The position numbers and the translations under genes were made by a program. A DNA stretch of 64,000 nt from an uncultured Chloroflexaceae bacterium (GTDB lineage: Bacteria > Chloroflexota > Chloroflexia > Chloroflexales > Chloroflexaceae): contig CAZQCG010000004.1 in assembly GCA_964592425.1 (NCBI GenBank), positions 74,257 through 138,256 on the forward strand, written 5' to 3'. Every line of letters starts with the position of its first letter. Within the stretch, counting starts at the first letter, position 1. Of the stretch, positions 6,261-36,237 are shown in pieces. The notes beneath the pieces are model-generated. The model saw only the letters and a list, made by a program, of their open reading frames with translations, was not told where the DNA came from and ran no database searches.

Positions 6261-6425
6261 TGGCAGCACAATGGAGGATCGCCGCACACGCCAGCCCCAG
6301 CCTCCTGACGCACCACGTCCGCCCTCACCACGCAATCGCGCTTCCCGCTCGCAGTGCTGCACGTCGGAGCCGATCCTCCACAGCGGCGCCGCCGGGCTCC
6401 TGACTCGGAGTTGAGGAGACCCCCT

Positions 6426-20357: not shown

Positions 20358-20374
20358 AAGGGGGCTTTCTTTGG

Positions 20375-20941
20375 CTAGGAAGCCTGTTCCAGGCGCTCAA
20401 AGTGCTCATTGAGGGCCGCCAGCAGGGCGGCGGGATGCGGATAGACCTCGATCAAGTCAAGGTGAGTGGAGTGAATAAAACCATTGGCAACGGCGTGCTG
20501 GAAGAAGGCCAGGAGCGGGTCGTAGAAACCGGCACTGTTGAGCAGATAGATCGGGCGGTTGTGGTAGCGCAGTTGGCGGAGGGTAAGCGTCTCGACCAAC
20601 TCTTCGAGCGTCCCGAAGCCTCCGGGCATCGCGATAAAAGCATCGCTACGCTCGAACATGATCGCCTTGCGTTCGCGGAGCGTCTCGGTAACCACCAGCT
20701 CGGAGACGGCATCAAGACCCTGTTCACGCTCGAAGAGGGCACGAGGGATGACCCCGATCACGTTGCCACCGGCGGCAAGGGCGGCACGGGCGGCAATGCC
20801 CATCAGGCCGACCCCACCACCACCATAGACCAGGCACCAGCCGGAGTCGGCCAGGGCCGCACCAAGCTCTGCGGCAACTTCGGCATAGAGGGGATTATTA
20901 CCAGTGCGGGCACCGCAATAGAGACAGATCGTTCGCTGCAT
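20375..20941 (-). CDS. LOG-family nucleotide phosphoribohydrolase
   Basis: LVYGGGGVGLMG, RKAIM, PGGFGTLEE; ATG 20941 lies 6 nt after a TACAAT -10 box. Confidence 0.92.
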   Translation of the reverse strand: MQRTICLYCGARTGNNPLYAEVAAELGAALADSGWCLVYGGGGVGLMGIAARAALAAGGNVIGVIPRALFEREQGLDAVSELVVTETLRERKAIMFERSDAFIAMPGGFGTLEELVETLTLRQLRYHNRPIYLLNSAGFYDPLLAFFQHAVANGFIHSTHLDLIEVYPHPAALLAALNEHFERLEQAS

Positions 20942-21127
20942 AGGACTATTGTACACCAGACCGGGCGGCAGGGATACGGTCGGGGCGTTTGAGCTGGGCG
21001 GTCAGAAAATGCCAGGTAGTGCACAAGGCTCACCTGGCTGATTCACAGCATACAACAGGAGAATCAGGATACCCACTCGTTTAATCTACACGAGACTATA
21101 GAGATTTCGGTTTTTGCAGGAATAATC

Positions 21128-21233
21128 GTACTACAAAGCCAAAAGATTACGAGAAGATTACAAAGATTACAAAAACATTACCGTTTATGTCAATATTAAA
21201 CTTGCCCCGAGAGAATAATACTATTTGTAGTAC
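21128..21233. promoter_or_regulatory. AT-rich regulatory array: four AA(G/C)ATTAC direct repeats inside a 10-bp inverted repeat
   Basis: AAGATTAC at 21143, 21154, 21163; AACATTAC at 21174; GTACTACAAA 21128-21137 and TTTGTAGTAC 21224-21233. Confidence 0.55.
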
Positions 21234-21409
21234 TAACTATCTCAGGAAAGAGTAGTTCTTTTATTCACAAAAGGATGTACCCACGACATATATAAGAAAG
21301 GAGAACCAGCCTTTATACTTGACGCAACAAGGCGCTCACAGGACCAGAGCCGTGCATAGCTTATCAAAGGGTTACAGTGGGTAACCTCCAGCTTCGGAGT
21401 AGTAGCACT

Positions 21410-22180
21410 ATGACATACGCTGCTTATAACGCCTGGAAAACGACGCCGATCGAGCATGAGCCGCACCTTTCGATTGTCATTCCGGCCTACAACGAAGCCG
21501 AGCGCATCGTTCCGACGATCGGGGCGATCGCCGCGCACGTTGCCGGGATGGGCTTCCCCTGGGAGTTGATCATCGCCGATGACGGTTCCCGCGACGAGAC
21601 AGTGGCCCTGGTGGAAGAGTTGGGGCTGGTCAATCTGCGCTTGCTGCGCACGGCGACGAACGGGGGCAAGGGCAGTGCGGTGCGCCGGGGGGTGCTAGCG
21701 GCGCAGGGCCGCTACATTCTTTTCGATGACGCCGACAACTCGACGCCGATTGAAGAGATCAGCAAGCTGCTAGCGAAGCTCGAGCAGGAGGGCTATGACG
21801 TTGCCGTCGGCTCGCGAGCAGCAGGTGGGACGGAAGAGGCCCATAAGAGCCTGTTGCGCCGCACGCTGAGCGGTGGCCTACGCTGGATCGTGCGCTACGT
21901 CTTTCGTATTGGTGTGCGCGATACCCAGTGCGGTTTCAAGCTCTTCACCCGCGAGGCAGCCCATCGGCTCTATGCCGCCCAGACGATCACAGGCTTCTCT
22001 TTTGACCTGGAGATCCTCTACCTGGCCGAGCGGTTGGGCTACCGCGTTGCCGAAGTGCCGGTCGCCTGGATTGATGCGCCCGGCTCCAAAGTGGATACCA
22101 CCCGCGAGATCCAGCGCTTTCTGCGTGATCTGGTGCGGATCAAGATGAACGACCTACGCGGAGTCTACGCCCACGCCTGA
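21410..22180 (+). CDS. GT2 polyprenol-phosphate hexose synthase-like glycosyltransferase
   Basis: SIVIPAYNE, ADDGSRD, NGGKG.AVR.G, DAD, DTQCGFK; GGAG RBS before ATG 21410. Confidence 0.9.
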   Translation: MTYAAYNAWKTTPIEHEPHLSIVIPAYNEAERIVPTIGAIAAHVAGMGFPWELIIADDGSRDETVALVEELGLVNLRLLRTATNGGKGSAVRRGVLAAQGRYILFDDADNSTPIEEISKLLAKLEQEGYDVAVGSRAAGGTEEAHKSLLRRTLSGGLRWIVRYVFRIGVRDTQCGFKLFTREAAHRLYAAQTITGFSFDLEILYLAERLGYRVAEVPVAWIDAPGSKVDTTREIQRFLRDLVRIKMNDLRGVYAHA

Positions 22181-22222
22181 GCCGCTTCATCCGTTCCATC
22201 GCAAAGTGAAAAGGGCCTAGCT

Positions 22223-23458
22223 ATGCGCATCGCGATTGTCTCGCCTTACCCGCCCAGTGCCGGTTCGCTCAACGAGTACGCCTTTCACTTCATCCGCTTT
22301 TTGCGGCAGAAGCCGGAGGTAGACGAAGTCATCGTCTTGAGCGATAGCCTGCCCGCTGGCCAGCGTTACCCCAGCGAACCGGACCGACAGCCCGGCCTGG
22401 CCCCCCTGCGCGTGCTGTCCTGCTGGCGTTTCGGCGCCCTCGACAATGCGCTGCGGATTATGCGTGCGGCAAACGAGTTGAAGCCCGACGTGGTGGTCTT
22501 CAACATCCAGTTCGCCTCTTTCGGTAGCTCCAAGCCAGCGGCGGCCCTGGGGCTGTTGACCCCAGCGCTGGTGCGGGCCAAAGGCATCGCCACGATTGTG
22601 CTGCTGCACAACATTATGGAGACGGTTGACCTGAAGAGTGCTGGCTTCGGGGCCAATCCCGTGGTCGAGAAGCTGATCCGTACCTTTGGGACGCTCACCA
22701 CGCGCATGTTGCTGCGTGCCGATCTGCTGGCGGTCACGATCCCACGCTATGTCGAAATCCTTGAGCAGAAGTACGGGGCCCAAAACGTGCTGCTGGCCCC
22801 CCACGGGGCCTTCGACGAAGCACCGCCGCCCTCCTTCGAGCAGCCACCCGGCCCTTTGCAGATCATGACCTTCGGCAAGTTCGGCACCTATAAGAAGGTT
22901 GAGCCGCTGATTACTGCTTTTCGGCTGTTGCAGGGCGGAGCGCACGATCTGGAACTGGTGATCGCTGGCACTGATAGCCCGAACGCGCCCGGCTATCTGG
23001 AGAGTGTGCGCCAGGCCAATGCCGACCTGCAGGGGCTGCGCTTCACTGGCTATGTCGCCGAAGAAGATGTGCCGCGCATCTTCCAGGAGGCCAGTGTGGT
23101 TGTCTTCCCCTACACCAGCACCACCGGCAGCTCGGGAGTGTTGCACCAGGCTGGCAACTACGGGCGGGCGGTCGTCTTACCGCAGCTGGGCGACCTGGCC
23201 GAGTTGATTGCTGAAGAGGGCTACACCGGCGAGTTTTTTGAGCCCGATCAGCCAGCCAGCCTGGCCACCGCGATTGCGCGCCTGCTTGATGACCCGGCCT
23301 ACCGCCGGGCGATGGGAACCCAAAACTACCTGGCCGCCTGTGGTCTGCCGATGAGCGAGGTGGTCGAGTGGTACCTGCTGCATGCCCATCAACTGCTGAA
23401 AAACCGTGCCACCCGACGCGGCCCTGCGGGCGCAGCCAGTGGGCTGGCACGCCATTGA
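22223..23458 (+). CDS. GT4 (GT-B) glycosyltransferase
   Basis: FGKFGTYK, FTGYVAEE, VVFPYTSTTGSSG. Confidence 0.88.
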   Translation: MRIAIVSPYPPSAGSLNEYAFHFIRFLRQKPEVDEVIVLSDSLPAGQRYPSEPDRQPGLAPLRVLSCWRFGALDNALRIMRAANELKPDVVVFNIQFASFGSSKPAAALGLLTPALVRAKGIATIVLLHNIMETVDLKSAGFGANPVVEKLIRTFGTLTTRMLLRADLLAVTIPRYVEILEQKYGAQNVLLAPHGAFDEAPPPSFEQPPGPLQIMTFGKFGTYKKVEPLITAFRLLQGGAHDLELVIAGTDSPNAPGYLESVRQANADLQGLRFTGYVAEEDVPRIFQEASVVVFPYTSTTGSSGVLHQAGNYGRAVVLPQLGDLAELIAEEGYTGEFFEPDQPASLATAIARLLDDPAYRRAMGTQNYLAACGLPMSEVVEWYLLHAHQLLKNRATRRGPAGAASGLARH

Positions 23459-23473
23459 CGAAAGGCTCCTCCG

Positions 23474-23797
23474 ATGGCGCTTACCACACGCACGTCCGGC
23501 AAGGTGACCGTCCTGGAACTGAAGGGCCGCTTTGACGCCCATGTGGCCCCTGCCGTACTCGAATGGTACGGTCAGATGCGCAGCCCCTACATCGTAGTCA
23601 ACCTGGCCGGGGTCAACTTTATCGACTCGAGTGCCCTGGCCGCCCTGGCTGGTGGCATGAAACGTTGTCGCCAACATGATGGTGACCTGCGCCTCTGCGC
23701 ACTCCAACAGCCGGTACAGGTCATCTTTGAGCTGACACGTATGAACCGGGCTTTTGCAATCTTTGCCAGCGAAGCTGAGGCGGTGGCTTCTTTTTAA
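23474..23797 (+). CDS. STAS anti-sigma-factor antagonist (RsbV-like) 1
   Basis: LKGRFD, FIDSSAL with phosphorylatable Ser. Confidence 0.93.
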   Translation: MALTTRTSGKVTVLELKGRFDAHVAPAVLEWYGQMRSPYIVVNLAGVNFIDSSALAALAGGMKRCRQHDGDLRLCALQQPVQVIFELTRMNRAFAIFASEAEAVASF

Positions 23798-23826
23798 CAG
23801 CCATACTGCTAATAAGGGCATCCTAA

Positions 23827-25131
23827 ATGAGTGCTATCCCTGTACGAGAGAGCGCAGGGCTCCGCTTCCAGAGCGAAGTTGAGGCGCGACTGCGCCTTCA
23901 ACTCCGCCAGGCCGAGGGGGAGATCGAGCAACTAGCCGGTCAGCTTGTAGAGACCCAGGATCTGCTCCTGGCAATGTACGAGCTCTCCCGGGCAACCCGC
24001 AGCCAGATCGGCATGGCTGAGACCCTGCGCAACCTCACGCGGGAGGCAACACGCCTTGTGAATGTGCAGGGTGCAGTGCTGGCAGTTGGCCCGACGGTGA
24101 TTCAATATCCGTCCGGTATGATCGACGATCAAAGTTTGCACCGGCTGATCGAGATAAGCCGCCACTATCCCGGCCAACTCGCCCTTGATGCCTCCCAGGG
24201 CAGCTTACCGGCTGGCCTGGCCAATCTCTGCCTGATGCCGATGCAGATCCTTGGCCAGACCGAGGCCGTGCTTGGGCTGTTGAACCGCGAAGGTGGCTTC
24301 AGGGCCCCTGAGCTCAAACTGGCCCAGGCGATTGCCGAGCAAGCTGGCGCCCATATCGAACACGCCCTGCTCCACCAGGAGACGCTCGACCAGGCCCGGC
24401 TGCAGGCCGAGATGGCCGTGGCCCGGCGGGTGCAACTGCAACTACTGCCGCAGGGTCGCCCGCATACCGCTAGCCTGGACTTCTACGCCGAGTCGCGCCC
24501 GGCCCTGCATGTGGGCGGCGATTTCTACGACTTTGTGGAAGAGCCGGGCCGCCCGTTACTGCTGATGCTCGGCGATGTGGCGGGCAAAGGCATCTCGGCG
24601 GCAATGATTATGGGCCTGATCCACACCGCTAGCCGGATCGCGGCCCGCTTTATGCCCAATCCGACCCCGGCCTCGGTGCTCAGGCGCACCAATATCGATC
24701 TCTACGAAGAGCTGACCCTGCTTGATGCCTTCACCACGGCCTTCACTGTCCAGTACGAGCCGGAGCAACAGCGCATTTGCTACGCCAACGCTGGCCATGC
24801 GCCAGTGATCTTCCGCCCGCCGGAGGGGCCAGCGCGTATGCTCGAAGCCGATGGGGTGCCGATTGGTGTCTTGCCAATGACCCTCAGCGAAGACTATTAC
24901 CTTGATTTTCCGCCCGGTGCACTGCTGGTCGTTACGACTGACGGCTTCAGTGAGGCGCGTGACTTTGCTGGCCAACTCTTCGGTTATGAGCGGCTGATCG
25001 ATCTGGTTGACGCCCTAGCCGATCGTTCAGCCCAGGCTATCGGCCAGAGTCTCTACAAGGCGATTAACGACTATTCGGCGGGACAACCCCAGGATGACGA
25101 CCAGACCCTGCTGGTCATCAAGGGAGTTTGA
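23827..25131 (+). CDS. GAF + PP2C/SpoIIE phosphatase (RsbU-like)
   Basis: Coiled coil and GAF-like N-terminus; GGDFYD, GDVAGKG, TDGFSE, DDQT. Confidence 0.93.
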   Translation: MSAIPVRESAGLRFQSEVEARLRLQLRQAEGEIEQLAGQLVETQDLLLAMYELSRATRSQIGMAETLRNLTREATRLVNVQGAVLAVGPTVIQYPSGMIDDQSLHRLIEISRHYPGQLALDASQGSLPAGLANLCLMPMQILGQTEAVLGLLNREGGFRAPELKLAQAIAEQAGAHIEHALLHQETLDQARLQAEMAVARRVQLQLLPQGRPHTASLDFYAESRPALHVGGDFYDFVEEPGRPLLLMLGDVAGKGISAAMIMGLIHTASRIAARFMPNPTPASVLRRTNIDLYEELTLLDAFTTAFTVQYEPEQQRICYANAGHAPVIFRPPEGPARMLEADGVPIGVLPMTLSEDYYLDFPPGALLVVTTDGFSEARDFAGQLFGYERLIDLVDALADRSAQAIGQSLYKAINDYSAGQPQDDDQTLLVIKGV

Positions 25132-25559
25132 TCGTGAAAGCACACACCGACGAGCTCCGGCTTGATCTGCCGGCAGACAACAAATACCTCAATGTCGTCG
25201 GGGCCTGTCTTGAAGCCTTCATCGAGCGGATCGACCATCTGGAAGATGCGCATAGTACCGCCTACAACATCCAGCTCGCGGTCAACGAGATCTTCGCCAA
25301 CATTGTTGTGCATGCCTATGAAGGCATGGTGGGGCAACGCATCGGTATGACGATCCGGCTGATCCCTGGCCCACGTCGGCTGCTGGTTGAACTGGCCGAT
25401 ACCGGCAATCCCTTCGACCCAAGCCTGGTGCCTGAGCCGAATCTTGAGGATGTGCAGATCCACGGCTACGGCCTCTTCCTCGCCCGCAACCTGATGGATG
25501 ACGTGAGCTATACGCGGCATCCCGACGGCAATACCTGGCAGCTGATCAAGCATCTGTAG
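25128..25559 (+). CDS. RsbW-like anti-sigma factor / Ser kinase
   Basis: AVNEIFANIVVHAY, DTGNPFDP, GYGLFL. Confidence 0.92.
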   Translation: MIVKAHTDELRLDLPADNKYLNVVGACLEAFIERIDHLEDAHSTAYNIQLAVNEIFANIVVHAYEGMVGQRIGMTIRLIPGPRRLLVELADTGNPFDPSLVPEPNLEDVQIHGYGLFLARNLMDDVSYTRHPDGNTWQLIKHL

Positions 25560-25572
25560 GAGTCAGCCCATT

Positions 25573-25911
25573 ATGGATCTTAACCTACGTGAACACCTTG
25601 TGCGTACCGTCGTGATTACCCCACAGCAGCGGATCGATGCCTTTAATGCCCCCGATCTGCGGGCAGCCCTGGATCAGCAACTCGAGCGTGGCGTGAATCG
25701 CTTTGTGCTTGACCTGTCGGCCGTGCCGTTTCTCGATAGTGCGGGCATGGCAGTGCTGGTGCGGCTGCTCAAGCGCGCCCGTGAGCATGGCGGCGATGTG
25801 CGCCTGGTCTGGCCCAACGAAGAAGCCGCACGGCGGATCATCAAGCTGACCAAGTTCGACCGGGTCTTCACCATGGCCGAAAGCGCTGAAGCAGCACTCG
25901 TCAATTTTTGA
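25573..25911 (+). CDS. STAS anti-sigma-factor antagonist (RsbV-like) 2
   Basis: RIDAFNA, FLDSAGM. Confidence 0.93.
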   Translation: MDLNLREHLVRTVVITPQQRIDAFNAPDLRAALDQQLERGVNRFVLDLSAVPFLDSAGMAVLVRLLKRAREHGGDVRLVWPNEEAARRIIKLTKFDRVFTMAESAEAALVNF

Positions 25912-25918
25912 GGCAGCT

Positions 25919-26317
25919 ATGGCCAGCATCCTGGTAGTAGACGATTCAGCGGTGATCCGGCACATCCTCGGCTATACGCTTAAGCGCGAGGGCTATGACG
26001 TGACTGCGGTCAGTAGCGGTCAGGAAGCCCTTGCGCACCTGGCAAATACGGTGGTTGACCTGGCAATTGTCGATCTGGACATGCCGGAGATGAATGGGAT
26101 TGCGCTGTTACAGGCGATCCGTGCTGAGGAGCAACTGGCCCCGGTGCAACTGATTATGTTGACTGCCAGTGGGCAGGATCAGGATCGCCTTAAGGCCGAG
26201 GCCGCCGGGGTCAACAGTTTTCTGACCAAGCCAGCCAGTTCGCGTGACTTGCTCGACGCGGTCGGGCAGGTGCTTGAGCAGGCCGGGCGTAGTGATGAGG
26301 TACACCCACCAGCCTGA
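25919..26317 (+). CDS. Single-domain response regulator
   Basis: ILVVDDS, VDLDMP, MLTA, LTKP. Confidence 0.93.
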   Translation: MASILVVDDSAVIRHILGYTLKREGYDVTAVSSGQEALAHLANTVVDLAIVDLDMPEMNGIALLQAIRAEEQLAPVQLIMLTASGQDQDRLKAEAAGVNSFLTKPASSRDLLDAVGQVLEQAGRSDEVHPPA

Positions 26318-26331
26318 AAGTTGCAAGGGTC

Positions 26332-28749
26332 ATGGGTATGCAGCAGCCGAGCGTCTCAATCCCACCTGAGGTCTTTCCGCAGACCTTCCCCTTCCATATC
26401 GCCTTTGGCCGCGACCTGCGCATTGTCCAACTCGGACCAGCCCTCGCGCAGCTTTGCCCGCAGCCAGCCGTCGGTCGTGACCTGACCGAGCTCTTTCGCA
26501 TTGAGCAGCCAGCCCTGGCAGCCGATTTTGAGACGATCAGCCGCCAGGTACATATGCCCTTCCTGCTGGCTCCAAGCTGTGGCGGACTGTTGCTGCGTGG
26601 GCAGATGTTGCCCTTGCCCGAGGCTGAACTGATGCTCTTTCTGGGCGTGCCCACGCTCAGCAGCCTGGAGGATCTGAAGCAGGTCGAGGCGGGGCTGCAC
26701 GAATTGCCGATCTATGACCCAAGCGGCCCGCTGATCAGCCTGCTGGCGGCCCAACTGCGCACCAATGAGGTGTTGATGCTGCGGCTGGCCGAGACTGAGC
26801 AGGCTGCGGCGATCTCACGAGCTAATACCTCGCGCCTGACGGCACTGATCGAGAGTCTGCGGGGGGGGGTGCTGGTTGAGGATCAGCATGGGCGGATCGT
26901 CCTGGCTAACCAGAGCCTCTGTACGCTCTTTGCCATTCCGGTGCCACCCGAAGCCCTCATTGGTGCCGACTGTGCCAAAGCCGCCGAGGATCTCAAGAAC
27001 CTCTTTGAGGGGCCGGAGCAGTTTCTGGCCCGCATCGAAGAGTTACTCCACGCTCAGCGCATTGTGGTCAGCGAAGAGCTGCGGCTGGTCGATGGACGCA
27101 CCTTCGAACGCGATTATGTGCCGATCTGGATCGACAGTAACTATGGCGGGCACCTCTGGCAGTACCGCGACATCAGCGAGCGCAAGGCGACCGAGCAGGC
27201 CCTGGCCCGCGCCCGTGACGAGGCCCTCGCCGCCTCGCGCCACAAGTCCGAGTTTCTGGCCATGGTCAGCCACGAGCTCCGTACCCCGATGAGTGGGGTG
27301 ATCGGGATGACTGAACTGCTGCTCGATACCCACCTTGATCAAGAACAGCGTGAGCTGGCGACGACGATCAGCGAAGCGGCGGCAGCGCTGCTGGCCATTC
27401 TCAACGATATTCTTGACTACTCGAAGATCGAGGCCAACCGGCTGATCCTCGACCGGGTGTCGCTTGCTCCGGCCACATTGATCACCGGCGTGGTGGGGGT
27501 ACTCAACGCGCAGGCCCAGGCGCGGGGCTTGCAACTACTCACAACCATCGACCCGCGCATCCCACCCATGATCTACGGCGATGCCGGGCGGCTGCGCCAG
27601 ATTTTGCTCAACCTGCTCGGGAATGCGATCAAGTTCACGCGGGTCGGCACGGTGAGTCTCAACGCAAGTGTGCTTGATCTGGATACACAGCGAGTCACCC
27701 TGCGCCTGGAGATCAGCGATACAGGTATCGGCATCCCGCTGGAGGCCCAGGGGCGGCTCTTCCAATCCTTCAGCCAGGCCGACGGCTCGGTCACCCGTGA
27801 ATTTGGCGGCACCGGCCTGGGCCTGGCAATCTGCAAGCGCCTGGTCGAGTTGATGGGCGGCACGATCGGCTTCCACAGCGTGGTCAACCAGGGCTCGATC
27901 TTCTGGTTCGAAATCGGCTTTGAGCTCGCCTCGCTCAGCCAACCTGAGCCACCCGTCGCCCCGCCACAACTGCCGACAGCCAATCAGCAACCAGCGGCAG
28001 GGCACATCCTGCTGGTGGAAGATATGCAGGTGAACCAGCGCCTGGCCCTCAGGCAGTTGGCCCGGCTGGGCTATAGCGCCGACGTGGCCTCCAACGGACG
28101 CGAGGCCCTGGCGCTGTTGCGCAGTGCGCCGACACGCTACAGCCTGATCCTGATGGATTGCCAGATGCCCGAACTGGATGGCTACAGCACCACCAGGATC
28201 ATTCGCAGCGACGAGCAAGTCCGGGGCGGTCATCTCCCGATCATCGCTATGACTGCCAATGCCCTGCAGAGTGACCTTGTAGCTTGCCTGGAGGCAGGCA
28301 TGGACGATGTGCTGGTCAAGCCGGTCAACCGCCACACCTTGCAGGCCCGGCTTGAACAGTGGCTCCATCATCCGAGCCGGGTTGTAGCGCTTGAAGAGGA
28401 GCTTACGAGCGACCTGATGCTGTTGAGTGCGGAAGATCCAGACGCCTTTGCGGAGTTAGTCGAGCAGTACAGCCTGGAGCAGCACCGGCTGATCAATGAG
28501 TTGTGGGTAGCCCTGGGGCTGAACGATAGCGCACACCTGGCGCGGGCCGCCCATAGTCTGCGCGGCAGCAGTGCCAGTATCGGCGCACAGGCCCTGGCTG
28601 AACAGTGCGCCCGGCTAGAGCAACTGGCCCGGGCTAACCAGTTGGACAATGCTGACACCCTCCTCAAGACGATTGTCAAGCTCGCCGACCGCGCCTGCAG
28701 CAGCCTGAAAGCCCGGCTCACCTCAGTCACCGCAGTGGTTCAGCCGTAG
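26332..28749 (+). CDS. Hybrid histidine kinase HNOBA-PAS-HisKA-HATPase-REC-HPt
   Basis: FPFHIAFGRDL...LRGQM..LPE...LFLG.P (HNOBA-like); SHELRTP, NAIKFT, DTGIG, GGTGLG; MDCQMP; AHSLRGSS. Confidence 0.9.
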   Translation: MGMQQPSVSIPPEVFPQTFPFHIAFGRDLRIVQLGPALAQLCPQPAVGRDLTELFRIEQPALAADFETISRQVHMPFLLAPSCGGLLLRGQMLPLPEAELMLFLGVPTLSSLEDLKQVEAGLHELPIYDPSGPLISLLAAQLRTNEVLMLRLAETEQAAAISRANTSRLTALIESLRGGVLVEDQHGRIVLANQSLCTLFAIPVPPEALIGADCAKAAEDLKNLFEGPEQFLARIEELLHAQRIVVSEELRLVDGRTFERDYVPIWIDSNYGGHLWQYRDISERKATEQALARARDEALAASRHKSEFLAMVSHELRTPMSGVIGMTELLLDTHLDQEQRELATTISEAAAALLAILNDILDYSKIEANRLILDRVSLAPATLITGVVGVLNAQAQARGLQLLTTIDPRIPPMIYGDAGRLRQILLNLLGNAIKFTRVGTVSLNASVLDLDTQRVTLRLEISDTGIGIPLEAQGRLFQSFSQADGSVTREFGGTGLGLAICKRLVELMGGTIGFHSVVNQGSIFWFEIGFELASLSQPEPPVAPPQLPTANQQPAAGHILLVEDMQVNQRLALRQLARLGYSADVASNGREALALLRSAPTRYSLILMDCQMPELDGYSTTRIIRSDEQVRGGHLPIIAMTANALQSDLVACLEAGMDDVLVKPVNRHTLQARLEQWLHHPSRVVALEEELTSDLMLLSAEDPDAFAELVEQYSLEQHRLINELWVALGLNDSAHLARAAHSLRGSSASIGAQALAEQCARLEQLARANQLDNADTLLKTIVKLADRACSSLKARLTSVTAVVQP

Positions 28750-28760
28750 GAGCACACCCT

Positions 28761-30281
28761 ATGCGTGCCCAGTCTCGTCTTACCCAACTCCGCACCCGTC
28801 TCCCTGAGGGCCTGGCTGGCGGTGCCCTGCTGCTGATCAGCACGACCGTGGTCAATGCGGGCAACTACGCCTATAACCTGATCATGGGGCGCTGGCTAGG
28901 CCCGGCAGCCTTTGCCGACGCCAGCCTGATCGTGACCCTCTTCCTGGTGATCACCTTTGTGACGGTGGCCTTGCAGACAACCACGGCGAAATTTGCGGCC
29001 GTCTACAGTGCCTCAGCCCGACCAGCGGCAAATGAGGCCCTGCGGCGCTGGCTCGGACGGGGGGCCTGGCTGGGTGGGCTGGGCCTGCTGCTGATCTTTG
29101 GCCTTGGAGCACCGCTCTGGCAGCGCTTCTTCCATACAAGTTCGATCTGGCCCTTTGTGATCTTCGCCCTGGGCGTGCCCTTCTACATCATTCTGGGCGT
29201 CGAGCGCGGCATGCTCCAGGGCGCAACGCGCTTCAGCGTCCTGGCCTTGAGTTTCCAGGCCGAGATGTGGGCGCGTCTGGTGATCGGCATCGCCCTGGTA
29301 GCTCTGGGCTGGTCGGTCTTCGGGGCCGTCGCCGGGCTGAGTCTCTCGCTGGTGGTCGCATGGCTTGTCTCACACCGGGCCAACGGGAACCAGATGCACG
29401 CTGAGCCACTCAGCGCCAGCGAGCGCCGGGCAATCATCGGTTTTACCGGGCCGGTGCTGGCAGCCCTGGCCGGGCAGATCTTGATCAATAACAGCGATGT
29501 GCTGATTGTCAAACACTTCTTCAGCGCGGCTGAGGCCGGACTCTACGCGGCCCTGGCGCTGATCGGGCGGATCGTCTTCTTTGCAACCTGGTCGGTGGTG
29601 ACAGTGCTCTTTCCGATTGTGGCCCGCCGTCATCACCAGGGCGACCCGCATCGCCACCTGCTCTACACTGGCCTGGCGATTGTGCTGCTGGTCTCAGCCC
29701 CGATCGTCCTGCTGACGATTGCCGTGCCTGAGTTGATCGTCGGCCTGATCTTTGGTGAGGCCTACCTGCCGATGGCGTCGCTGCTGGGGGGCTATGCTCT
29801 GGCGACAACCTTCTACGCCCTGGCCAATGTGGTAATCAGCTATCGACTCTCGCTTGACGACTCGAGCGGCAGCCTGCTGGCCCTGGCCGCCGGACTGACC
29901 CAGGTTGGCCTGCTCTGGCTGCTGCACGCTGACCTGGCCCAGGTGGTACAGCTACAGGTCTATGTGATGGGCGGGCTCTTTGTGGCCCTGGTGCTCTGGG
30001 ATGGCTGGATGCTGCTCTGGCCACGACTACAACGCAGCCAGCCCGCAAGTCCCACGCCCGTACAACCCACACCCACGTCGAACGCTCCCGTAGCAGGCTC
30101 GGGAGATAGCGTAGCCAAACAGCCTACGCCAGTCACCCCGGTGGCAGGCTCAGGTGATGGGGTAGCTGAGCAGCCTGGGCCGGTCGCCCCAGTGGCGGGT
30201 GCAGACGATGGGGCAACTGAGCAGCCTGGGCCGGTAGGTCACAACGACGTAGAGAAGCAGCCTGTGCCGGTAGGTGCTTAG
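28761..30281 (+). CDS. Wzx/MOP-family oligosaccharide flippase with repetitive C-terminal tail
   Basis: GNYAYNLIMGRWLGPAAFA, INNSDVLIVKHFFS.AEAGLYAA; 12+ TM segments. Confidence 0.85.
   Translation: MRAQSRLTQLRTRLPEGLAGGALLLISTTVVNAGNYAYNLIMGRWLGPAAFADASLIVTLFLVITFVTVALQTTTAKFAAVYSASARPAANEALRRWLGRGAWLGGLGLLLIFGLGAPLWQRFFHTSSIWPFVIFALGVPFYIILGVERGMLQGATRFSVLALSFQAEMWARLVIGIALVALGWSVFGAVAGLSLSLVVAWLVSHRANGNQMHAEPLSASERRAIIGFTGPVLAALAGQILINNSDVLIVKHFFSAAEAGLYAALALIGRIVFFATWSVVTVLFPIVARRHHQGDPHRHLLYTGLAIVLLVSAPIVLLTIAVPELIVGLIFGEAYLPMASLLGGYALATTFYALANVVISYRLSLDDSSGSLLALAAGLTQVGLLWLLHADLAQVVQLQVYVMGGLFVALVLWDGWMLLWPRLQRSQPASPTPVQPTPTSNAPVAGSGDSVAKQPTPVTPVAGSGDGVAEQPGPVAPVAGADDGATEQPGPVGHNDVEKQPVPVGA
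30087..30275 (+). repeat. 51-nt (17-aa) tandem repeat, about 3.5 units, in the flippase tail
   Basis: PVAGSGDSVAKQPTPVT / PVAGSGDGVAEQPGPVA / PVAGADDGATEQPGPVG / ...VEKQPVPVG. Confidence 0.85.
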
Positions 30282-30316
30282 GGTAGAGCTTTGGAGGGAG
30301 AGAGATGTCTGATACC

Positions 30317-30358
30317 CGCTCCTCGCTCCTCGCTCTTCGCTTCTCGCTCTTCACTCAC
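30317..30358. repeat. Intergenic heptamer tandem repeat CGCT(C/T)(C/T)T x5-6
   Basis: cgctcct cgctcct cgctctt cgcttct cgctctt cactcac. Confidence 0.75.
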
Positions 30359-30378
30359 TTGTCGTCAGGTAGAAGCCT

Positions 30379-32115
30379 ATGGCTACTTTGCTCACACATC
30401 TGCGCAACCGAAACTGGATGCAAGTCTTTCGGCTCCGTCGCTTGCTGATCATCGGTCTCTTTGTCGGGATGCTGGCGATTGGCGGCCTGCTGGCGCTGCG
30501 CCTGCTACGCCCCAGTGTACCGCTTCAGATTCTGCCGGGCCAGGCCGTCGCCAATGCGCTGGTGCGCAGTATGGCTGGCAGCGGTGAGGTGCAGTTTGTC
30601 TCCGGCGCCTATGTGCCCGGTGAACAACTGCTGCTCTATACACGCCTGCCTGAAAGCGACCTGGGGCGTATCCGCAGCTGGGCCGTTGTGCAGCTTGAGC
30701 CCTTTGCCGATGAACTGGCCCGGCTGCCCGACCAGGAAGACCTGACCTGGATGATCGACTATGGCCCCGACCCGGCCTTGCAGGAACTCCTGGTTGTGCC
30801 GCTGCAACGGGTGCGTGAACCGGCCTTCTACCGCTATATCAGCGGGGCACCCAGCCTGCCGACAAGTGTAGCCGTCGTACCAACTGCCGCCGCCGCAGCG
30901 CCCCTGGTCGTCCCCGTGCCCGTATCGACGGCCGCCCCGGTAGCGACAGCTGGATCGGTGGCACCAACAATCTCAGTGGCGGTTCCGTCGGTTGAGTCGG
31001 GCCGGCCTGGTGAGGTGACCTCCCTCCTGAGCACGGGCTTCGAGGGTGAGGGCAGTGCAGCGAGCCTCTGGCGGCCCCTCTCCGGTGACTGGAGTATGGT
31101 GGACGGAATCTATCTCCAACGTGACCCGAATGGCTATGACTATACAACCCTGCTTGACCTGCCACCCCTGGCCCATAGCAGCATTGACGCTCGCTTGCGC
31201 CTAGTCGAAGGCGCGATGGGCGGTGGGATCGTCTATAACGCACCAGACCTGACCGCACGCAACGGGGCGCAACTGGTCGATCTTGATCGCAGTGGGGCCT
31301 TCCTGCGCTGGGGACACTATAACGAGGACGGCACCTACATCTATGGTGGAGGGGTGGCCCTCGACCCGCCGCTCAACGATGAGCAGTGGCACACGCTGCG
31401 CATCGTCACCCACGCCGCGGAGAGCACGGTCTGGGTTGATGGGCGCGAGATAGCCCGCATCAGTAATGACAGCACCGAGGGCTACGTCGGCCTTTCGACC
31501 TCCCAGGCCCAGGTTGAGTTTGATGATGTGGTGGTACTGGCGCTGCCCGAAGGCATCGATCTGCCGTTGAGTACGTCCGTGCCGATGACGGTGACGGGCG
31601 GGCTCAGCGACGATTTTGAAGATGGTGACAGCAAAGGCTGGCAGGTTTTGAGCGGGGCCTGGCAGAGTCGCGACGGGGCCTACCTGCAGACGAGTACAAG
31701 TGGAGCCGACCTGAGCAGTATTTCGCTCTTCCAGGGAGCAAACTTCACCGCAACGGTGCGGCTGCAATGGCTGGACGGCACACTGGGTGCGGGCGTGATC
31801 TATAACATGGCCCGCCGTGATGCCAACGCACGCAGCCAGATTGTCAACTATACCGAAGACGGTACGTTGTTGCAGTGGGGCCACTTTGACGAGGGTGGCA
31901 ATTTCGTCTTTGAGGGCAGCGCCGAGGTGCCTGACGGCAGCGATGGTGAGTGGCACAGCCTTGAACTGCGCGTGGCCGACGGGCTGGCCGACTTCCTGCT
32001 TGATGGCGAACTGGTGGCCGAACAGGTTGAACTGACCTACAGCAGCGGCTACCTGGGCTTGCTGGCCAGTAACGGCAGTGTCGCTTTTGATGATGTGCAG
32101 ATTATGTCACGCTGA
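30379..32115 (+). CDS. Membrane-anchored protein with two DUF1080/LamG-like beta-sandwich domains
   Basis: N-terminal TM, Pro/Ala/Val linker, two homologous domains (F....W...SG.W....G.Y.Q ... WH.L.. ..GY.GL......V.FDDV). Confidence 0.75.
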   Translation: MATLLTHLRNRNWMQVFRLRRLLIIGLFVGMLAIGGLLALRLLRPSVPLQILPGQAVANALVRSMAGSGEVQFVSGAYVPGEQLLLYTRLPESDLGRIRSWAVVQLEPFADELARLPDQEDLTWMIDYGPDPALQELLVVPLQRVREPAFYRYISGAPSLPTSVAVVPTAAAAAPLVVPVPVSTAAPVATAGSVAPTISVAVPSVESGRPGEVTSLLSTGFEGEGSAASLWRPLSGDWSMVDGIYLQRDPNGYDYTTLLDLPPLAHSSIDARLRLVEGAMGGGIVYNAPDLTARNGAQLVDLDRSGAFLRWGHYNEDGTYIYGGGVALDPPLNDEQWHTLRIVTHAAESTVWVDGREIARISNDSTEGYVGLSTSQAQVEFDDVVVLALPEGIDLPLSTSVPMTVTGGLSDDFEDGDSKGWQVLSGAWQSRDGAYLQTSTSGADLSSISLFQGANFTATVRLQWLDGTLGAGVIYNMARRDANARSQIVNYTEDGTLLQWGHFDEGGNFVFEGSAEVPDGSDGEWHSLELRVADGLADFLLDGELVAEQVELTYSSGYLGLLASNGSVAFDDVQIMSR

Positions 32116-32123
32116 GAGCTACT

Positions 32124-35078
32124 ATGCTGAAGCGCATCCCCTTTCGCCGCTTCCTGCCCGACCTGCTGGCCCTGCTCCTGCTAGCTACCCTACCGCTGCT
32201 CGTCTTCTGGCAAGTCTGGGCACCCAACCCGGCCGACCGGGTGATCTTCGGCGGTGACATTTTGATGGGGGCCTACCCCACGCGGGTCTTTGTCCATCGG
32301 CTCTTCGACGCTGGCATGGTACCCCTCTGGAATCCCTACCAGCTTGGCGGGATGCCTCTGCTGGGTGATGTGCAGGTAGCGCCCTACTACCTGCCCAACC
32401 TGCTGCTCGACTGGCTCTATCGGGGTCAGGAGTTATCGTACCTGGCCTTTGAGTTACTAGTCGTTGCGCATTATGCTCTGGGCGGGCTCTTCCTCTATGC
32501 CTACCTGCGCGGGCTGGGTGTAATCCCGACAGCGGCGTTAATTGGTTCAATCGCCTTTCAGTTCAACGGCTTCTTTGTCGGCCATCGTGGGCACTACAGC
32601 ATGCTTGCGGTCACGGTCTGGTTGCCCGCCGTACTCTGGACGCTCGACCGAAGCTGGCATACACCACGCCCAGCCGCCATGATCGCCTGGAGTGTCGCCG
32701 CCGGTCTGGCCCTCAGCCAGATGGTGATGGCCGGCCATCCGCAACTGACACTCTACTGTGCGCTGGCCATTGCCGCCTACGCTGCCTATCGCTGGGCCGA
32801 CGCCTGGAAGCATCCCGCCAGCAAGTGGGAGCGCCTGCGTGTTCCAGCCACCTTCGCCCTGGCTGGCCTGCTGGCCCTCGGCATCGCCGCCGTCACCCTC
32901 TTGCCCGTCGCCGAGTTGCTCGGGCGCTCACGGCGCGGCGATCTCTCCTATACCTTCACAGCCCAGCACTCGCTCATGCCACGCAACCTGCTCAGCCTGC
33001 TCATGCCCGAATTTTTGAACTGGAGCGGCACCGAGTACCGCATCTACGCCGGTATTCTCACCCTGGCCCTGGTGGCGGTTGCCTGGGCAGTGCCGGAACA
33101 TGCCCGGCCTGAGCGGCGCTTCTTTACGGTGACGATTGCCGTGGCACTGATCATTGCCCTGGGTGGCTTCACCGCCCTGCACGGCCTGCTCTACCGCTTT
33201 GTACCGGGCCTCGGCTCGGTGCGCGTCAGCGCCCGCGCCTTCTACATCGCCAACCTGGCCCTGGCTGTACTGGCGGCCTTCGGTGCCGAACACCTGCTGC
33301 GTGGCTGTACGATCATCGAGCAGCAACGTCTGCGCCGGCTTGTGCATGGGGCAATGATCATGCTAACCGGGGCACTGCTGGTTGGGATCGGAGCCTATGC
33401 CCTGCTGGTCGGCAACTATCGCCCGGTCGGCGAGGAGTTCTACTTCGCCGAGAATCTCTTTAACCGCGACCCCTCCTCAGATACCTACACCCTGCTGACC
33501 CAGACCGTCAACGCTTACGGCGTCTTCCTGGTGCTGCTGACCACCGCGATTGTGCTGCTCTGGACCTACGCCTTCGGGCGCTTGAGCCGGCCGGGGCTGG
33601 CCCTGGCGATGATCCTCTTGATCGTGCTCGATATGGCCACCTTCACGCCCTATCACGATACAATTCGGGCCGATCCCGACACGGCCCGTTTTACCGTACG
33701 CCAGTACGCCACGACCATGCTGACGGAAGATTGGCAGATCATCGACCAGGATGTACTGATCGAGCGCCTGGCCGCCCTACCCGATGCCCTACGGGTAGAC
33801 AACGCCGCCGAGGTCTTGCCCGACAACTACAGCCAGATCTACCGCATCGCCTTTGCCACTGGCTATAACGTGCTCGACCTGCAAGAGCGTTTTACCTTGC
33901 TCTCGCAATGGCCCTACCTGAGTGATGCCGCCCGCCGCGACCTGCTCAACACCGGCTATGTGCTCACTGCGCCTGAGACAACCGATCCGCCCGAAGAGGG
34001 TGCGCGCCTGATCGTGGAGAACAGCCAGGGTCGGCTCTGGGAGCGGGCGGTGCAGCCAGCCTACACTCACTTCAGCACCAGCCTGCGCCCTGCCTCCACC
34101 CTGATCACACTGAACGGCCTGCTCAACCTGCCGGGTGACAGCCTGAACACCCGGCCCACCCTGAGCGCCGATGAGGGCAATCTCCACACGACCCTCGCCG
34201 AACTCTGGCCCGAAGCAGTCGATCCGGCTCTCTATATGATCGGCACAAGCGGCGTGCAGAGCCCGGTGGCGCTCAGTGTGCTGGCGGGCGGGCCGATCCG
34301 CTACAGCGCGGTCATCGTTGACGGCGTGACCGTCACGCCTAAACAGCGCGGGATCGTGATCGCCATGATCGACCCACAGAACGGAACCGTGCTCAAAGCG
34401 GGCGGCTTCGACACCTACCAATCAGCAGCAGAGGCCGATCGGCTGGTGAGTATGATCGAGGCAGCCCCGAACGGCACGATTGTTGCTCTGGCCACCTATG
34501 ACGAAGGGCTGGCGAAGATTGGCCCGGCGGCCCAGGCCGCAATTGGAGGGCTGGGCGGACAGATCAACCTGGCAAACCAGGTTGGTGCGGCCTACGCCCT
34601 GATCGGCGTCAAAGGCGCTCCCGCAGGCTCGGCCCTTGAGGCGCTCGACCGGGTGCCGGTCATGCTTGATCTTGGGCCGGGGGCCATGCCAGCAGGCCCG
34701 GCGCAGGTGCGCAGCCACATGCTAAGCTACACAGCGGAGCGCATCAGCCTGAGTGTGGAGAATGATGTGCGTGGCCTGCTAACGATCAGCGAGAGTACCT
34801 ATCCCGGTTGGGAAGCCTACGTGGACGGTATGGCCACCCCGATCCTGCGGGCCAACGGCCTGCTGCGGGCCATCATCCTGCCGCCGGCCCTGGCCGGACA
34901 TCCCCACGAAGTCACCTTCGTCTACCGTCCGCTGAGTGCGCGCCTGGGTGGGGCCGTCAGCCTGCTCAGCCTGGCCCTGGCCGCCGCCATCAGCCTGAGC
35001 TGCGCCGTGGCCCTGGTGCCGCCTCTGACCTGGCCCCGCCGCCGCCGGACGGTGCTCAGTTTGCCACCGGCACGCTAG
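32124..35078 (+). CDS. YfhO-family GT-C membrane protein with ILEI/FAM3-like insert
   Basis: PLWNPYQLGGMPLLGD, AGHPQ, C-terminal SESTYPGWEAYVDG...RANGLLRAI (YfhO); insert RGIVIAMID...FDTY...VALATYDE...AYALIGVKG. Confidence 0.8.
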   Translation: MLKRIPFRRFLPDLLALLLLATLPLLVFWQVWAPNPADRVIFGGDILMGAYPTRVFVHRLFDAGMVPLWNPYQLGGMPLLGDVQVAPYYLPNLLLDWLYRGQELSYLAFELLVVAHYALGGLFLYAYLRGLGVIPTAALIGSIAFQFNGFFVGHRGHYSMLAVTVWLPAVLWTLDRSWHTPRPAAMIAWSVAAGLALSQMVMAGHPQLTLYCALAIAAYAAYRWADAWKHPASKWERLRVPATFALAGLLALGIAAVTLLPVAELLGRSRRGDLSYTFTAQHSLMPRNLLSLLMPEFLNWSGTEYRIYAGILTLALVAVAWAVPEHARPERRFFTVTIAVALIIALGGFTALHGLLYRFVPGLGSVRVSARAFYIANLALAVLAAFGAEHLLRGCTIIEQQRLRRLVHGAMIMLTGALLVGIGAYALLVGNYRPVGEEFYFAENLFNRDPSSDTYTLLTQTVNAYGVFLVLLTTAIVLLWTYAFGRLSRPGLALAMILLIVLDMATFTPYHDTIRADPDTARFTVRQYATTMLTEDWQIIDQDVLIERLAALPDALRVDNAAEVLPDNYSQIYRIAFATGYNVLDLQERFTLLSQWPYLSDAARRDLLNTGYVLTAPETTDPPEEGARLIVENSQGRLWERAVQPAYTHFSTSLRPASTLITLNGLLNLPGDSLNTRPTLSADEGNLHTTLAELWPEAVDPALYMIGTSGVQSPVALSVLAGGPIRYSAVIVDGVTVTPKQRGIVIAMIDPQNGTVLKAGGFDTYQSAAEADRLVSMIEAAPNGTIVALATYDEGLAKIGPAAQAAIGGLGGQINLANQVGAAYALIGVKGAPAGSALEALDRVPVMLDLGPGAMPAGPAQVRSHMLSYTAERISLSVENDVRGLLTISESTYPGWEAYVDGMATPILRANGLLRAIILPPALAGHPHEVTFVYRPLSARLGGAVSLLSLALAAAISLSCAVALVPPLTWPRRRRTVLSLPPAR

Positions 35079-35119
35079 TACAGCGTCCGAGCAAACAAGA
35101 CGGGAAGACTACGCATCCG

Positions 35120-35158
35120 GTAAGGGCGCAGCAGCGCTGGCCGCTGCTGCGCCCCAAC
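35120..35158. repeat. REP-like palindrome, degenerate relative of 10118-10153
   Basis: GTAAGGGCGCAGCAGCG-ctggc-CGCTGCTGCGCCCCAAC, 13-bp perfect core. Confidence 0.7.
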
Positions 35159-35255
35159 GCCGTCAACCCATCAGCATTACTCGGACGCAGTACTAGTGGC
35201 AATACGTTTCAAATAGGGGCAAGCGCAGATCGATCAAGGCCGATCAGACGCAGAA

Positions 35256-35279
35256 GCTTTGCGGCTTTGCGGCTTTGCG
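35256..35279. repeat. Octamer tandem repeat (GCTTTGCG)x3
   Basis: Direct reading. Confidence 0.7.
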
Positions 35280-35435
35280 TGAGCTTATCTGAAAGGTATT
35301 GCTACTCACCAGGCTTTCAGGGGTCGGGGACAGGTCTCAGACTGCACACATCAGGTCAAAGCCGCTGACAAGCAGATCGCCTGAGACGGGTATAATGCTG
35401 CCTGGATTGAGCGCATAGCTGCACCACAGCCTGGC

Positions 35436-36077
35436 ATGGAGAAGAGCATCACGATCAGCAGCAGTCAGCAGCGGCTTGGGCGACGTCTGGGCCTCACACC
35501 CTATTACCGGATCGCCACCCAGGAACCGAACCTGCTACAGCTCGAGTCCTACCCGGAGGCCAACCGGGGCATGGGCCTGGCTGTGCTGGCAGGCGGCATC
35601 ACACTGATCCTGCTCGCGCTCGTCGTGGGTCTGAGCGGGCTGAGTAGCGCCGCTGCTGGCTCTGGCTTTGCCGTCGCGGCCCTGGCGGCAGTCATTGCGG
35701 CCGCCCTGGCCGGGTTGGGCTACCAGCGCGTGGTTGGCGGCTATGCCGTGCTGACCACCCGCAACAGCATTATTGCCAACAGCGAGGCTGCCGACCTCAG
35801 CTTTCGCCAGCACAGTGCCGTTGGTGGCGAGCGCATCCAGGTGCTCAGCTTTGCTCAGATCAGTGGCCTGCGCCTACGCCGGCGCCCCCTGGCGACCGGC
35901 TGGCCCATCCGGCGCATCCAGCCGATTGTCGCCCTTGAGCTGATGGTCGGTGAGCAAATCTGGGTCGTCGACACCTCCGCCGACCCGGCCACCCTCCAGC
36001 CAACCGCGCTGGCCCTGGGCGAACTCCTGGGCCGCACGGCGATCAACAGCGATGGTTCTTCGCCAGCAGGGAATTAG
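35436..36077 (+). CDS. Hypothetical membrane protein (two TM helices)
   Basis: 213-aa ORF with two hydrophobic segments; TATAAT at 35391-35396 upstream. Confidence 0.7.
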   Translation: MEKSITISSSQQRLGRRLGLTPYYRIATQEPNLLQLESYPEANRGMGLAVLAGGITLILLALVVGLSGLSSAAAGSGFAVAALAAVIAAALAGLGYQRVVGGYAVLTTRNSIIANSEAADLSFRQHSAVGGERIQVLSFAQISGLRLRRRPLATGWPIRRIQPIVALELMVGEQIWVVDTSADPATLQPTALALGELLGRTAINSDGSSPAGN

Positions 36078-36089
36078 GCAAGCCCTGCC

Positions 36090-36237
36090 CAGCGCCTAAG
36101 CAAAGTCGCAAAGCAAACGCCCCCTGGCTACCGCCTGCGCTGCGGCCTACTCCAGATGCGTTCCACGCTTTGATACACGCTTCGCGCTCCTCTCGCGCTC
36201 CTCAGGATGCACAAACCGCAACTTTGCTCAGACCCTA
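36090..36237. repeat. Degenerate ~148 bp MITE-like element
   Basis: Left CAGCGCCTAAGCAAAGT vs reverse complement of right end TAGGGTCTGAGCAAAGT (13/17). Confidence 0.45.

Follow-up and report, generated by a model that had tools for sequence, protein, structure and literature searches.

What does a partner switch control when its genes lie inside a glycan-assembly cluster and no sigma factor accompanies them? Partner switching is a textbook mode of sigma-factor control, and non-transcriptional outputs are only now emerging. The question is raised by a gene cluster of an uncultured, filamentous Chloroflexaceae bacterium (GenBank assembly GCA_964592425.1, contig CAZQCG010000004.1), located in a stretch of 64,000 nucleotides (nt; contig positions 74,257 to 138,256, forward strand) that was analysed as a whole and is called here the window; coordinates are those of the window unless another locus is named. 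We consider it reasonably probable that this cluster encodes a partner switch without a sigma factor, dedicated to a lipid-linked glycan pathway, whose output is post-translational, on the glycan machinery itself, and whose likeliest target is the flippase. Eleven consecutive co-directional open reading frames (ORFs) in the ORF list of the window, at 21377-35078 on the + strand, make up the cluster:

21377-22180, + strand: GT2, a soluble glycosyltransferase (GT) of 267 amino acids (aa) from a GTG at 21377 or 256 aa from an ATG at 21410, both starts being possible (Pfam Glycos_transf_2, 1e-30)
22223-23458, + strand: GT4-type glycosyltransferase, 411 aa (Pfam Glyco_trans_1_4, 8.5e-21)
23474-23797, + strand: STAS1, a single-domain STAS protein with a phosphorylatable Ser52 (Pfam STAS, 2e-17; NCBIfam anti-sigma factor antagonist, 3e-21)
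23827-25131, + strand: GAF-PP2C, a SpoIIE-type serine phosphatase, 434 aa (SpoIIE, 2e-40; weak GAF match)
25128-25559, + strand: RsbW/SpoIIAB-like serine kinase, 143 aa, overlapping the PP2C gene by 4 nt (HATPase_c_2, 1e-23; NCBIfam RsbW, 4e-14, under the cut-off)
25573-25911, + strand: STAS2, a single-domain STAS protein with a phosphorylatable Ser56 (Pfam STAS, 2e-21)
25919-26317, + strand: REC, a stand-alone receiver, 132 aa (Response_reg, 1e-28)
26332-28749, + strand: cytoplasmic hybrid histidine kinase, HNOBA(H-NOXA)-PAS-HisKA-HATPase_c-REC-Hpt, 805 aa (Pfam; HNOBA, 2.7e-23)
28761-30281, + strand: Wzx-like flippase of the MOP family, 506 aa, with approximately 12 transmembrane (TM) segments and a repetitive C-terminal tail (Polysacc_synt_3, 6e-14)
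30379-32115, + strand: membrane-anchored protein with an N-terminal TM segment and two DUF1080 (3-keto-disaccharide hydrolase/concanavalin A (ConA)-like) domains, 578 aa (PF06439, 3keto-disac_hyd, 6e-17, in two stretches)
32124-35078, + strand: YfhO-like glycosyltransferase of the GT-C type with an ILEI domain in a large extracytoplasmic loop, 984 aa (YfhO, 3e-13; ILEI, 1.5e-16)

All these ORFs lie where a sequence-only reading, made by a model without database searches, had placed them, and Pfam confirms every domain named there. The gaps between successive genes are, in order, 42, 15, 29, -4, 13, 7, 14, 11, 97 and 8 nt, the junction of the flippase and DUF1080 genes being the only long one. 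TM helices are absent from GT2, GT4 and every signalling protein. As had been noticed in that first reading, no sigma factor, DNA-binding regulator or cyclic-nucleotide enzyme is encoded: a Pfam scan of the eleven proteins retrieved neither a sigma factor, nor a DNA-binding domain, nor a nucleotide cyclase.

The signalling proteins were likewise described as having intact motifs, and alignment with orthologues bears this out. The phospho-acceptor serines, Ser52 of STAS1 (in a DS motif) and Ser56 of STAS2 (in a DSAG motif), lie in motifs invariant in 12 orthologues each. The kinase displays an N-box (E54/N58/H62), a G1 box (D91-x-G93) and a G2 box (G113-x-G115), and the five metal-binding aspartates of the phosphatase (D232, D250, D372, D424 and D425) are invariant across 14 orthologues. 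The stand-alone receiver possesses D8/D9/D52/T82/K104, and the phospho-residues of the hybrid kinase are H314, D609 in the receiver and H741 in the Hpt domain. Catalytic and phospho-acceptor motifs are thus intact in all signalling proteins. Taken alone, the GAF domain of the phosphatase is weakly matched (E 0.007); it is solid for the family, GAF_2 matching 13 of 14 orthologues with a best value of 7e-09. The AlphaFold 2 (AF2) model of the phosphatase (mean predicted local distance difference test, pLDDT, 83.5) shows a PP2C fold nearest to the PP2C domains of SiaA (the best match), RssB and Rv1364c.

A sample of 401 Chloroflexota genomes was searched for orthologues of the GT4-type enzyme. 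Ten of them encode one (56-82% identity), and they belong to several classes and at least six families; within the window's own family, it was found in just 3 of approximately 25 genomes, and this patchy distribution is probably the result of horizontal spread. All ten genomes place GT4 between GT2 and a PP2C gene. A STAS gene lies between GT4 and the PP2C gene in nine of the ten, the remaining one (L021/L032) having its STAS gene further down the cluster. Beyond the window, 18 loci belonging to several Chloroflexota classes contain this gene set (19 with the window), which argues that the arrangement is not a product of chance. Indeed, co-conservation of the signalling and glycan halves had been chosen beforehand as one of the points on which the sequence-only reading could fail, and it was found in these 18 related loci. 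The recurrent core is GT2-GT4-STAS1-GAF-PP2C-RsbW-STAS2, usually followed by REC, often by a kinase, and then by Wzx. Its order is kept at 35-80% protein identity over several classes, despite rearrangements; in L032, the order is GT2-GT4-PP2C-STAS2-Wzx-STAS1-RsbW-REC, with the flippase gene amid the signalling genes. The cluster recurs in Phototrophicus methaneseepsis, in Candidatus (Ca.) Roseilinea, and in Caldilineaceae and other metagenome-assembled genomes (MAGs). In sequence databases, GT4 has 4709 homologous proteins at E<=1e-30; all those that are named come from the Chloroflexota.

The last two genes follow a looser rule. Relatives of the YfhO protein occur in three Ca. Chloroploca species, an Oscillochloris MAG, a Caldilineaceae MAG and Kouleothrix; the Chloroploca loci read GT2-GT4-STAS1-PP2C-RsbW-STAS2-REC-Wzx-DUF1080x2-YfhO, and the Caldilineaceae MAG has the full set together with extra genes. 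The GT-C enzyme is swappable, being either YfhO with ILEI or a non-orthologous Mannosyl_trans2/PMT_2 protein, and the DUF1080 protein accompanies it each time (loci L001-L005, L036, L037 and L044).

A pointer to a target comes from the flippase. Its orthologues fall into three types: unfused, like the flippase of the window; joined to a pyruvyl transferase; and extended at the N-terminus by fused RsbW-like domains. In the complete genome of Ca. Roseilinea (AP024676.1), the flippase (L038:14351-16432; 693 aa, 55% identity to that of the window) carries in its first approximately 250 residues two HATPase_c_2 matches, with 32% and 38% identity to the RsbW-like kinase of the window. Such an N-terminal extension on an orthologous flippase was found in approximately 55 of the best 120 database clusters homologous to the Roseilinea flippase, at identities down to 42% (members P0121-P0190). 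This extension is made up of a full RsbW-like domain, whose N-box is degenerate, and a half domain, in which E206 and N210 of the N-box and D241 of the G1 box are invariant in the aligned set. The AF2 model of the Roseilinea protein (pLDDT 81) places two alpha/beta units before a MOP-fold membrane domain matching WzxE, MurJ and MATE transporters. In the three clean contexts examined (3/3), the fused flippase occupies the position of Wzx in the window. An apparent triple fusion of REC, RsbW-like domain and Wzx (P0127) was discounted, as the genes of its contig are fragmented and frameshift errors are the probable cause. No description of RsbW-flippase fusions was found in the literature searched, which is incomplete; to our knowledge, regulation of a flippase by a protein switch has not been described to date.

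The sequence-only reading had left two outputs side by side, the glycosylation enzymes or a remote sigma factor. Ten genes of the sigma70 family are present in the genome to which the window belongs (99.6% complete); five are primary-like and the other five belong to the extracytoplasmic function (ECF) type. No gene of this genome exceeds the TIGR02980 cut-off for SigB/F/G-type sigma factors, no sigma gene adjoins any of its RsbW, STAS or PP2C genes, and none is present in any of the 19 loci. Three more partner-switching gene groups are found in this genome (C1:139964-144152, C6:69491-74086 and C42:32861-35013), one of which has a STAS-RsbW fusion and a 1016-aa PP2C protein; a sigma factor gene adjoins none of them. 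Because a SigB/F/G-type sigma factor and a neighbouring sigma gene are both lacking, and because RsbW-like-flippase fusions exist, direct control of the glycan machinery is favoured and the remote sigma factor recedes. The flippase is the first candidate, since no cognate sigma factor is available and since the orthologous flippase of many relatives carries RsbW-like domains within the same polypeptide; GT2/GT4 come second, since GT2-GT4-PP2C is the tightest linkage.

From the gene content, the intact motifs, the co-conservation, the fusions, and the absence of both a SigB-type sigma factor and an H-NOX gene, we infer the following mechanism. GT2 would load a sugar onto polyprenyl phosphate and GT4 would extend it; the Wzx-like flippase would then carry the lipid-linked glycan over the membrane, where the GT-C enzyme, together with the DUF1080 protein, would transfer it to an extracytoplasmic acceptor. 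This could be a polymer of the wall or a protein, the DUF1080 protein being one possibility. Following the paradigm of these families, the RsbW-like kinase would phosphorylate the conserved serine of STAS1, STAS2 or both, and GAF-PP2C would remove the phosphate. Two inputs would tip the balance, the GAF domain and the stand-alone REC, the latter being phosphorylated, in this view, by the HNOBA-PAS hybrid kinase via its Hpt domain. As the fusions and precedent suggest, the RsbW-like protein would bind Wzx and keep the flippase inactive, or active, until unphosphorylated STAS pulls it off; GT2/GT4 would be the second candidate target. In its most specific version, which we put forward only tentatively, the RsbW-like kinase would be an ‘anti-flippase factor’, the phosphorylation of the two STAS proteins would decide on the export of the lipid-linked glycan, and the RsbW-like-Wzx fusions would be the covalent version of the complex.

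Among the competing explanations, the one that survives best keeps the direct output and moves it to the cytoplasmic transferases: unphosphorylated STAS1 would bind GT4 or GT2 and activate or inhibit it, as the STAS domain of Anabaena All4160 does in cis. GT2-GT4-STAS1-PP2C is the most invariant adjacency of the cluster, as the counts given above for the ten genomes indicate, and it is kept even in genomes whose Wzx is encoded elsewhere or was not found (G361 and G212); moreover, regulation of a sugar transferase through STAS serine phosphorylation has been demonstrated (PMC13555669). However, RsbW-like-flippase fusions are abundant, whereas no STAS-GT2 or STAS-GT4 fusion was found among the best 120 GT4 homologues, in which GT2-GT4 is the sole fusion type. 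We therefore hold a switch acting on the transferases instead of the flippase to be doubtful. The two targets are also compatible, as the switch could assemble a complex of glycosyltransferases and flippase.

According to a second alternative, which seems unlikely, the RsbW-like protein is an anti-sigma factor for a primary-like or ECF sigma factor encoded elsewhere, and the glycan genes belong to the regulon of this sigma factor. The RsbW and STAS proteins do score best against anti-sigma and anti-anti-sigma families, ten sigma70-family genes are on hand, and the csbB-yfhO operon of Bacillus subtilis is reported to be expressed from sigma-B- and sigma-X-dependent promoters (PMC5836110). Nevertheless, the 19 loci and the genome offer no sigma gene of the expected type or position, and a remote sigma factor leaves unexplained both why RsbW-like domains are fused to the flippase and why the flippase gene is nested among signalling genes in L032. 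Mere adjacency, in which a signalling operon happens to sit in a glycan operon, would agree with the variation of the kinase and GT-C parts between loci, but it is highly improbable given a core order kept over several classes and gene fusions that join both halves.

Several observations nevertheless weigh against control of the flippase by the switch. The flippase of the window is itself devoid of fused RsbW-like domains, a free RsbW is still encoded in the three clusters that contain a fusion, and the fused domains may have another role, for example as a docking site for STAS. The switch is also linked more tightly to GT2-GT4 (10 of 10 genomes) than to Wzx, which is in the cluster in approximately seven of nine evaluable genomes; genome G361 and the Oscillochloris MAG encode their Wzx orthologue at another place, as a fusion with a pyruvyl transferase. 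A second GT4 paralogue (L015), in a Caldilineaceae MAG of 12 Mb, has no signalling neighbours. In organisms that have no SigB, such as Chlamydia, primary-like sigma factors can be partners of RsbW-like proteins, and five such sigma factors are encoded here. Lastly, GT2 scores under every NCBIfam equivalog cut-off, which loosens the assignment of its donor and acceptor, and a single transcript for the eleven genes is deduced from the gaps alone.

The glycan genes had been proposed to form a coherent path, and this proposal remains plausible: GT2 resembles enzymes acting on polyprenyl phosphate, the flippase is of the MOP/Wzx type, and a GT-C enzyme recurs even if its family is swapped. GT2 is most like a polyprenyl-phosphate sugar synthase; its best Protein Data Bank match is the dolichyl-phosphate mannose synthase of Pyrococcus furiosus (5MLZ, 1e-15), then ArnC and GtrB, and its leading NCBIfam matches, each of them sub-threshold, are PpgS, AglJ, PgfS and ArnC. 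Among the eleven genes, Pfam retrieved only Wzx from the Wzx/Wzy pathway set; a priming phosphoglycosyl transferase, a Wzy polymerase and a Wzz/polysaccharide co-polymerase (PCP) protein were not found. Proteins of approximately 660 aa in which GT2 and GT4 are fused stand at the head of the same cluster in some Chloroflexota MAGs (P0039, P0048, P0052, P0070, P0098, P0107 and P0111; L037:10001-11980). These fusions, together with clusters lacking a priming phosphoglycosyl transferase, suggest a glycan linked to polyprenyl monophosphate and built by GT2, then GT4. The extra GT4, which relatives have as a fusion with GT2, suggests that the lipid carries an oligosaccharide and not a single sugar. 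A route of GT2, GT4, MOP flippase and GT-C resembles the archaeal dolichyl-phosphate pathway of the AglJ/AglR type. A weak hint at mannose as the sugar comes from GH92 and GH5_mannosidase genes nearby and from the PMT_2/Mannosyl_trans2 forms of the GT-C enzyme.

As for the final enzyme, it exceeds the cut-off of the YfhO family (PF09586; 49.4 versus 28.5 bits) and is predicted to have approximately 12 TM segments, a loop of approximately 440 aa (residues 509-946) and a final TM segment, the same topology as that reported for YfhO of B. subtilis (PMC5836110). In the DUF1080 protein, residues approximately 150-215 form a linker rich in Pro, Ala, Val, Ser and Thr between the TM anchor and the two ConA-like domains. 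Linkers of this type match the segments modified by GT-C protein O-glycosyltransferases, so that the DUF1080 protein could be a glycan acceptor.

Polysaccharide pyruvyl transferases (CsaB-like) are fused to the flippase in L003 (3640-6684) and L045 (340-2736), and their gene adjoins that of the flippase in L038 (16446-17636) and L043; the cluster of the window has no such gene. In the relatives that have it, this enzyme suggests that the exported glycan is pyruvylated. At the 3' end of the flippase gene of the window (30093-30235), 2.3-2.6 copies of a 51-nt repeat encode a Pro/Gly/Ala-rich unit of 17 aa, PVAGSGDxVAxQPxPVx; the resulting C-terminal tail was not found in orthologues.

The sequence-only reading had further considered the HNOBA-kinase to be an integral part of the cascade and a gas or redox cue to be its possible signal; neither view gains support here. 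The REC gene is present in eight of the 12 compared loci. Three Chloroploca loci have no histidine kinase; in other loci the kinase is PAS-PAS (Oscillochloris), GAF-PAS or PAS x3, or contains GAF (Phototrophicus), and HNOBA occurs in just one or two of the 401 sampled genomes. Judging from this turnover, the histidine kinase is a variable accessory input, not a conserved part of the system. Its N-terminus matches the H-NOXA domain of a Nostoc punctiforme signal transduction histidine kinase (STHK; 2P04, E 2e-22) and soluble guanylate cyclase, and HNOBA is a PAS-like dimerization module, not a haem or gas sensor. In the genome of the window, PF07700 (HNOB) gave zero matches, and a tblastn search that used both H-NOX proteins of L004 as queries retrieved nothing credible; the best match (contig C9, E 0.1) was rejected as a low-complexity, coiled-coil/proline-rich ORF. 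With H-NOX missing from this nearly complete genome, the idea of a gas cue finds no support in the organism. One relative, a Caldilineaceae MAG (L004, DAOUCA010000169.1), contains two H-NOX (HNOB) genes inside its cluster (2425-2970 and 5767-6381; E 2e-53 and 1e-38), one directly 5' of an HNOBA-kinase gene and the other directly 5' of a kinase-REC gene. In two relatives, a PAS-HisKA_3 kinase and a NarL/GerE-type response regulator are encoded 3' of the cluster (L032:9020-10949; L039:12362-14106); this pair, absent from the window, is a possible transcriptional layer.

How new is such a system? The cluster had been presented as undescribed, which holds for the cluster and not for the principle, since this has been published in Vibrio fischeri (PMC10120452) and in Anabaena (PMC13555669). 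In V. fischeri, the STAS protein SypA and SypE are encoded in the syp polysaccharide locus; Ser56 of SypA is the switch residue, and the effect is exerted below transcription on a target that is unknown (PMC10120452). As here, the switch lies inside a polysaccharide locus with glycosyltransferases and a flippase; it has no sigma output and receives the input of a hybrid kinase, SypF, via a receiver, as is proposed for the present cluster. Unlike here, where three genes are involved, kinase, REC and PP2C form one protein in SypE, according to its published description; conversely, the present cluster, in a Chloroflexota host, has a GAF domain on its PP2C, two STAS proteins, and a GT2/GT4/Wzx/GT-C set without a visible priming phosphoglycosyl transferase. 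In Anabaena PCC 7120, the SpoIIE-type phosphatase HenR and the RsbW-like kinase Alr3423 toggle the STAS serine of All4160 and so directly control an enzyme of polysaccharide synthesis; a histidine kinase was proposed as the input, and this regulation was considered lineage-specific to cyanobacteria (PMC13555669, Harada et al. 2026). A phosphatase and an RsbW-like kinase set STAS serine phosphorylation there and would do so here. However, All4160 joins its STAS domain to a Bac_transf priming transferase, HenR combines REC with PP2C, and their genes are scattered, whereas here STAS is free-standing, no Bac_transf gene is present, the genes are contiguous, and it is the flippase that bears a kinase-like domain in relatives. 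By its gene organization, the cluster belongs to neither the SypE-type nor the All4160-type architecture; the principle is known, and the cluster differs from both precedents in architecture, phylum and pathway.

Further likenesses complete this picture. With RsbU/RsbV/RsbW-SigB and SpoIIE/SpoIIAA/SpoIIAB-SigF, the cluster shares the three protein families, with catalytic motifs and STAS serine intact; in contrast to these canonical RsbW-SigB and SpoIIAB-SigF pairs, a cognate sigma factor is found in neither cluster nor genome. A GT2 similar to polyprenyl-phosphate sugar synthases and a YfhO-family GT-C recall CsbB/GtcA/YfhO, GtrA/B/C and the mycobacterial PpgS with its GT-C (PMC5836110, PMC8035078), and in B. 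subtilis the csbB-yfhO operon is under sigma-B, which is itself controlled by a partner switch (PMC5836110). These three-component glycosylation systems use a small GtrA/GtcA protein, in contrast to the 506-aa, 12-TM MOP/Wzx flippase of the window, and lack the extra GT4. The kinase N-terminus, homologous to H-NOXA, and the H-NOX genes preceding the kinases of the Caldilineaceae relative recall H-NOX/HnoK and the Nostoc STHK, from which the present case differs by the missing H-NOX gene. Finally, HptB-HsbR-HsbA and SiaABCD of Pseudomonas aeruginosa also have non-sigma outputs and a hybrid kinase/Hpt feed, and SiaA is the best match of the PP2C model; they act on FlgM, HsbD or the diguanylate cyclase SiaD, whereas no cyclase is present here. 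Literature on this cluster, on RsbW with Wzx, or on partner switching in Chloroflexota yielded nothing relevant, in a search of incomplete coverage that is weak evidence of novelty.

Divergent upstream neighbours of the cluster are LOG, gltX and amylase genes; downstream, and unrelated to it, lie a small TM protein and then a Mop-type operon. The cluster and the divergent LOG gene have one upstream region in common:

21100-21376, + strand: AT-rich upstream region, probable promoter region

The GC fraction falls to 0.58 across 20001-22000, which includes this region. One sigma70-like site at 21099-21126 does not rise above shuffle expectation, promoter and terminator scans gave counts no higher than that expectation and are uninformative, and an Rfam scan of 20900-36600 retrieved no RNA family. 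Three AGATTAC direct repeats, at 21144, 21155 and 21164 (21144-21170; spacing 9-11 nt), lie in the AT-rich region 5' of GT2 and are the sole + strand copies in the window; as a conserved element of the cluster they were rejected, not being kept upstream of it in relatives. Approximately 4.7 copies of a CGCTCCT heptamer (30317-30356) occupy part of the 97-nt gap between the Wzx and DUF1080 genes. In some relatives, a divergent gene trio lies upstream of the cluster (L037:3164-9542; L039:1-4304), encoding a cellulase/mannosidase-like protein of glycoside hydrolase family 5 (GH5), a Big_1/Invasin_D3 protein and a protein of approximately 1100 aa; the same trio adjoins the lone GT4 paralogue (L015:6369-11959).

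Taken at its present strength, this analysis adds a second phylum in which a complete switch is hard-wired into a glycan assembly line, and the RsbW-like-flippase fusions point to a concrete candidate target, the flipping step. Should the anti-flippase reading be true, the flippase would become a candidate target of Vibrio SypA as well. For the Chloroflexota, whose cell envelope is poorly understood, the cluster would define a widespread surface-glycan pathway made up of GT2/GT4, Wzx, GT-C and the DUF1080 protein, sometimes with a pyruvyl transferase.

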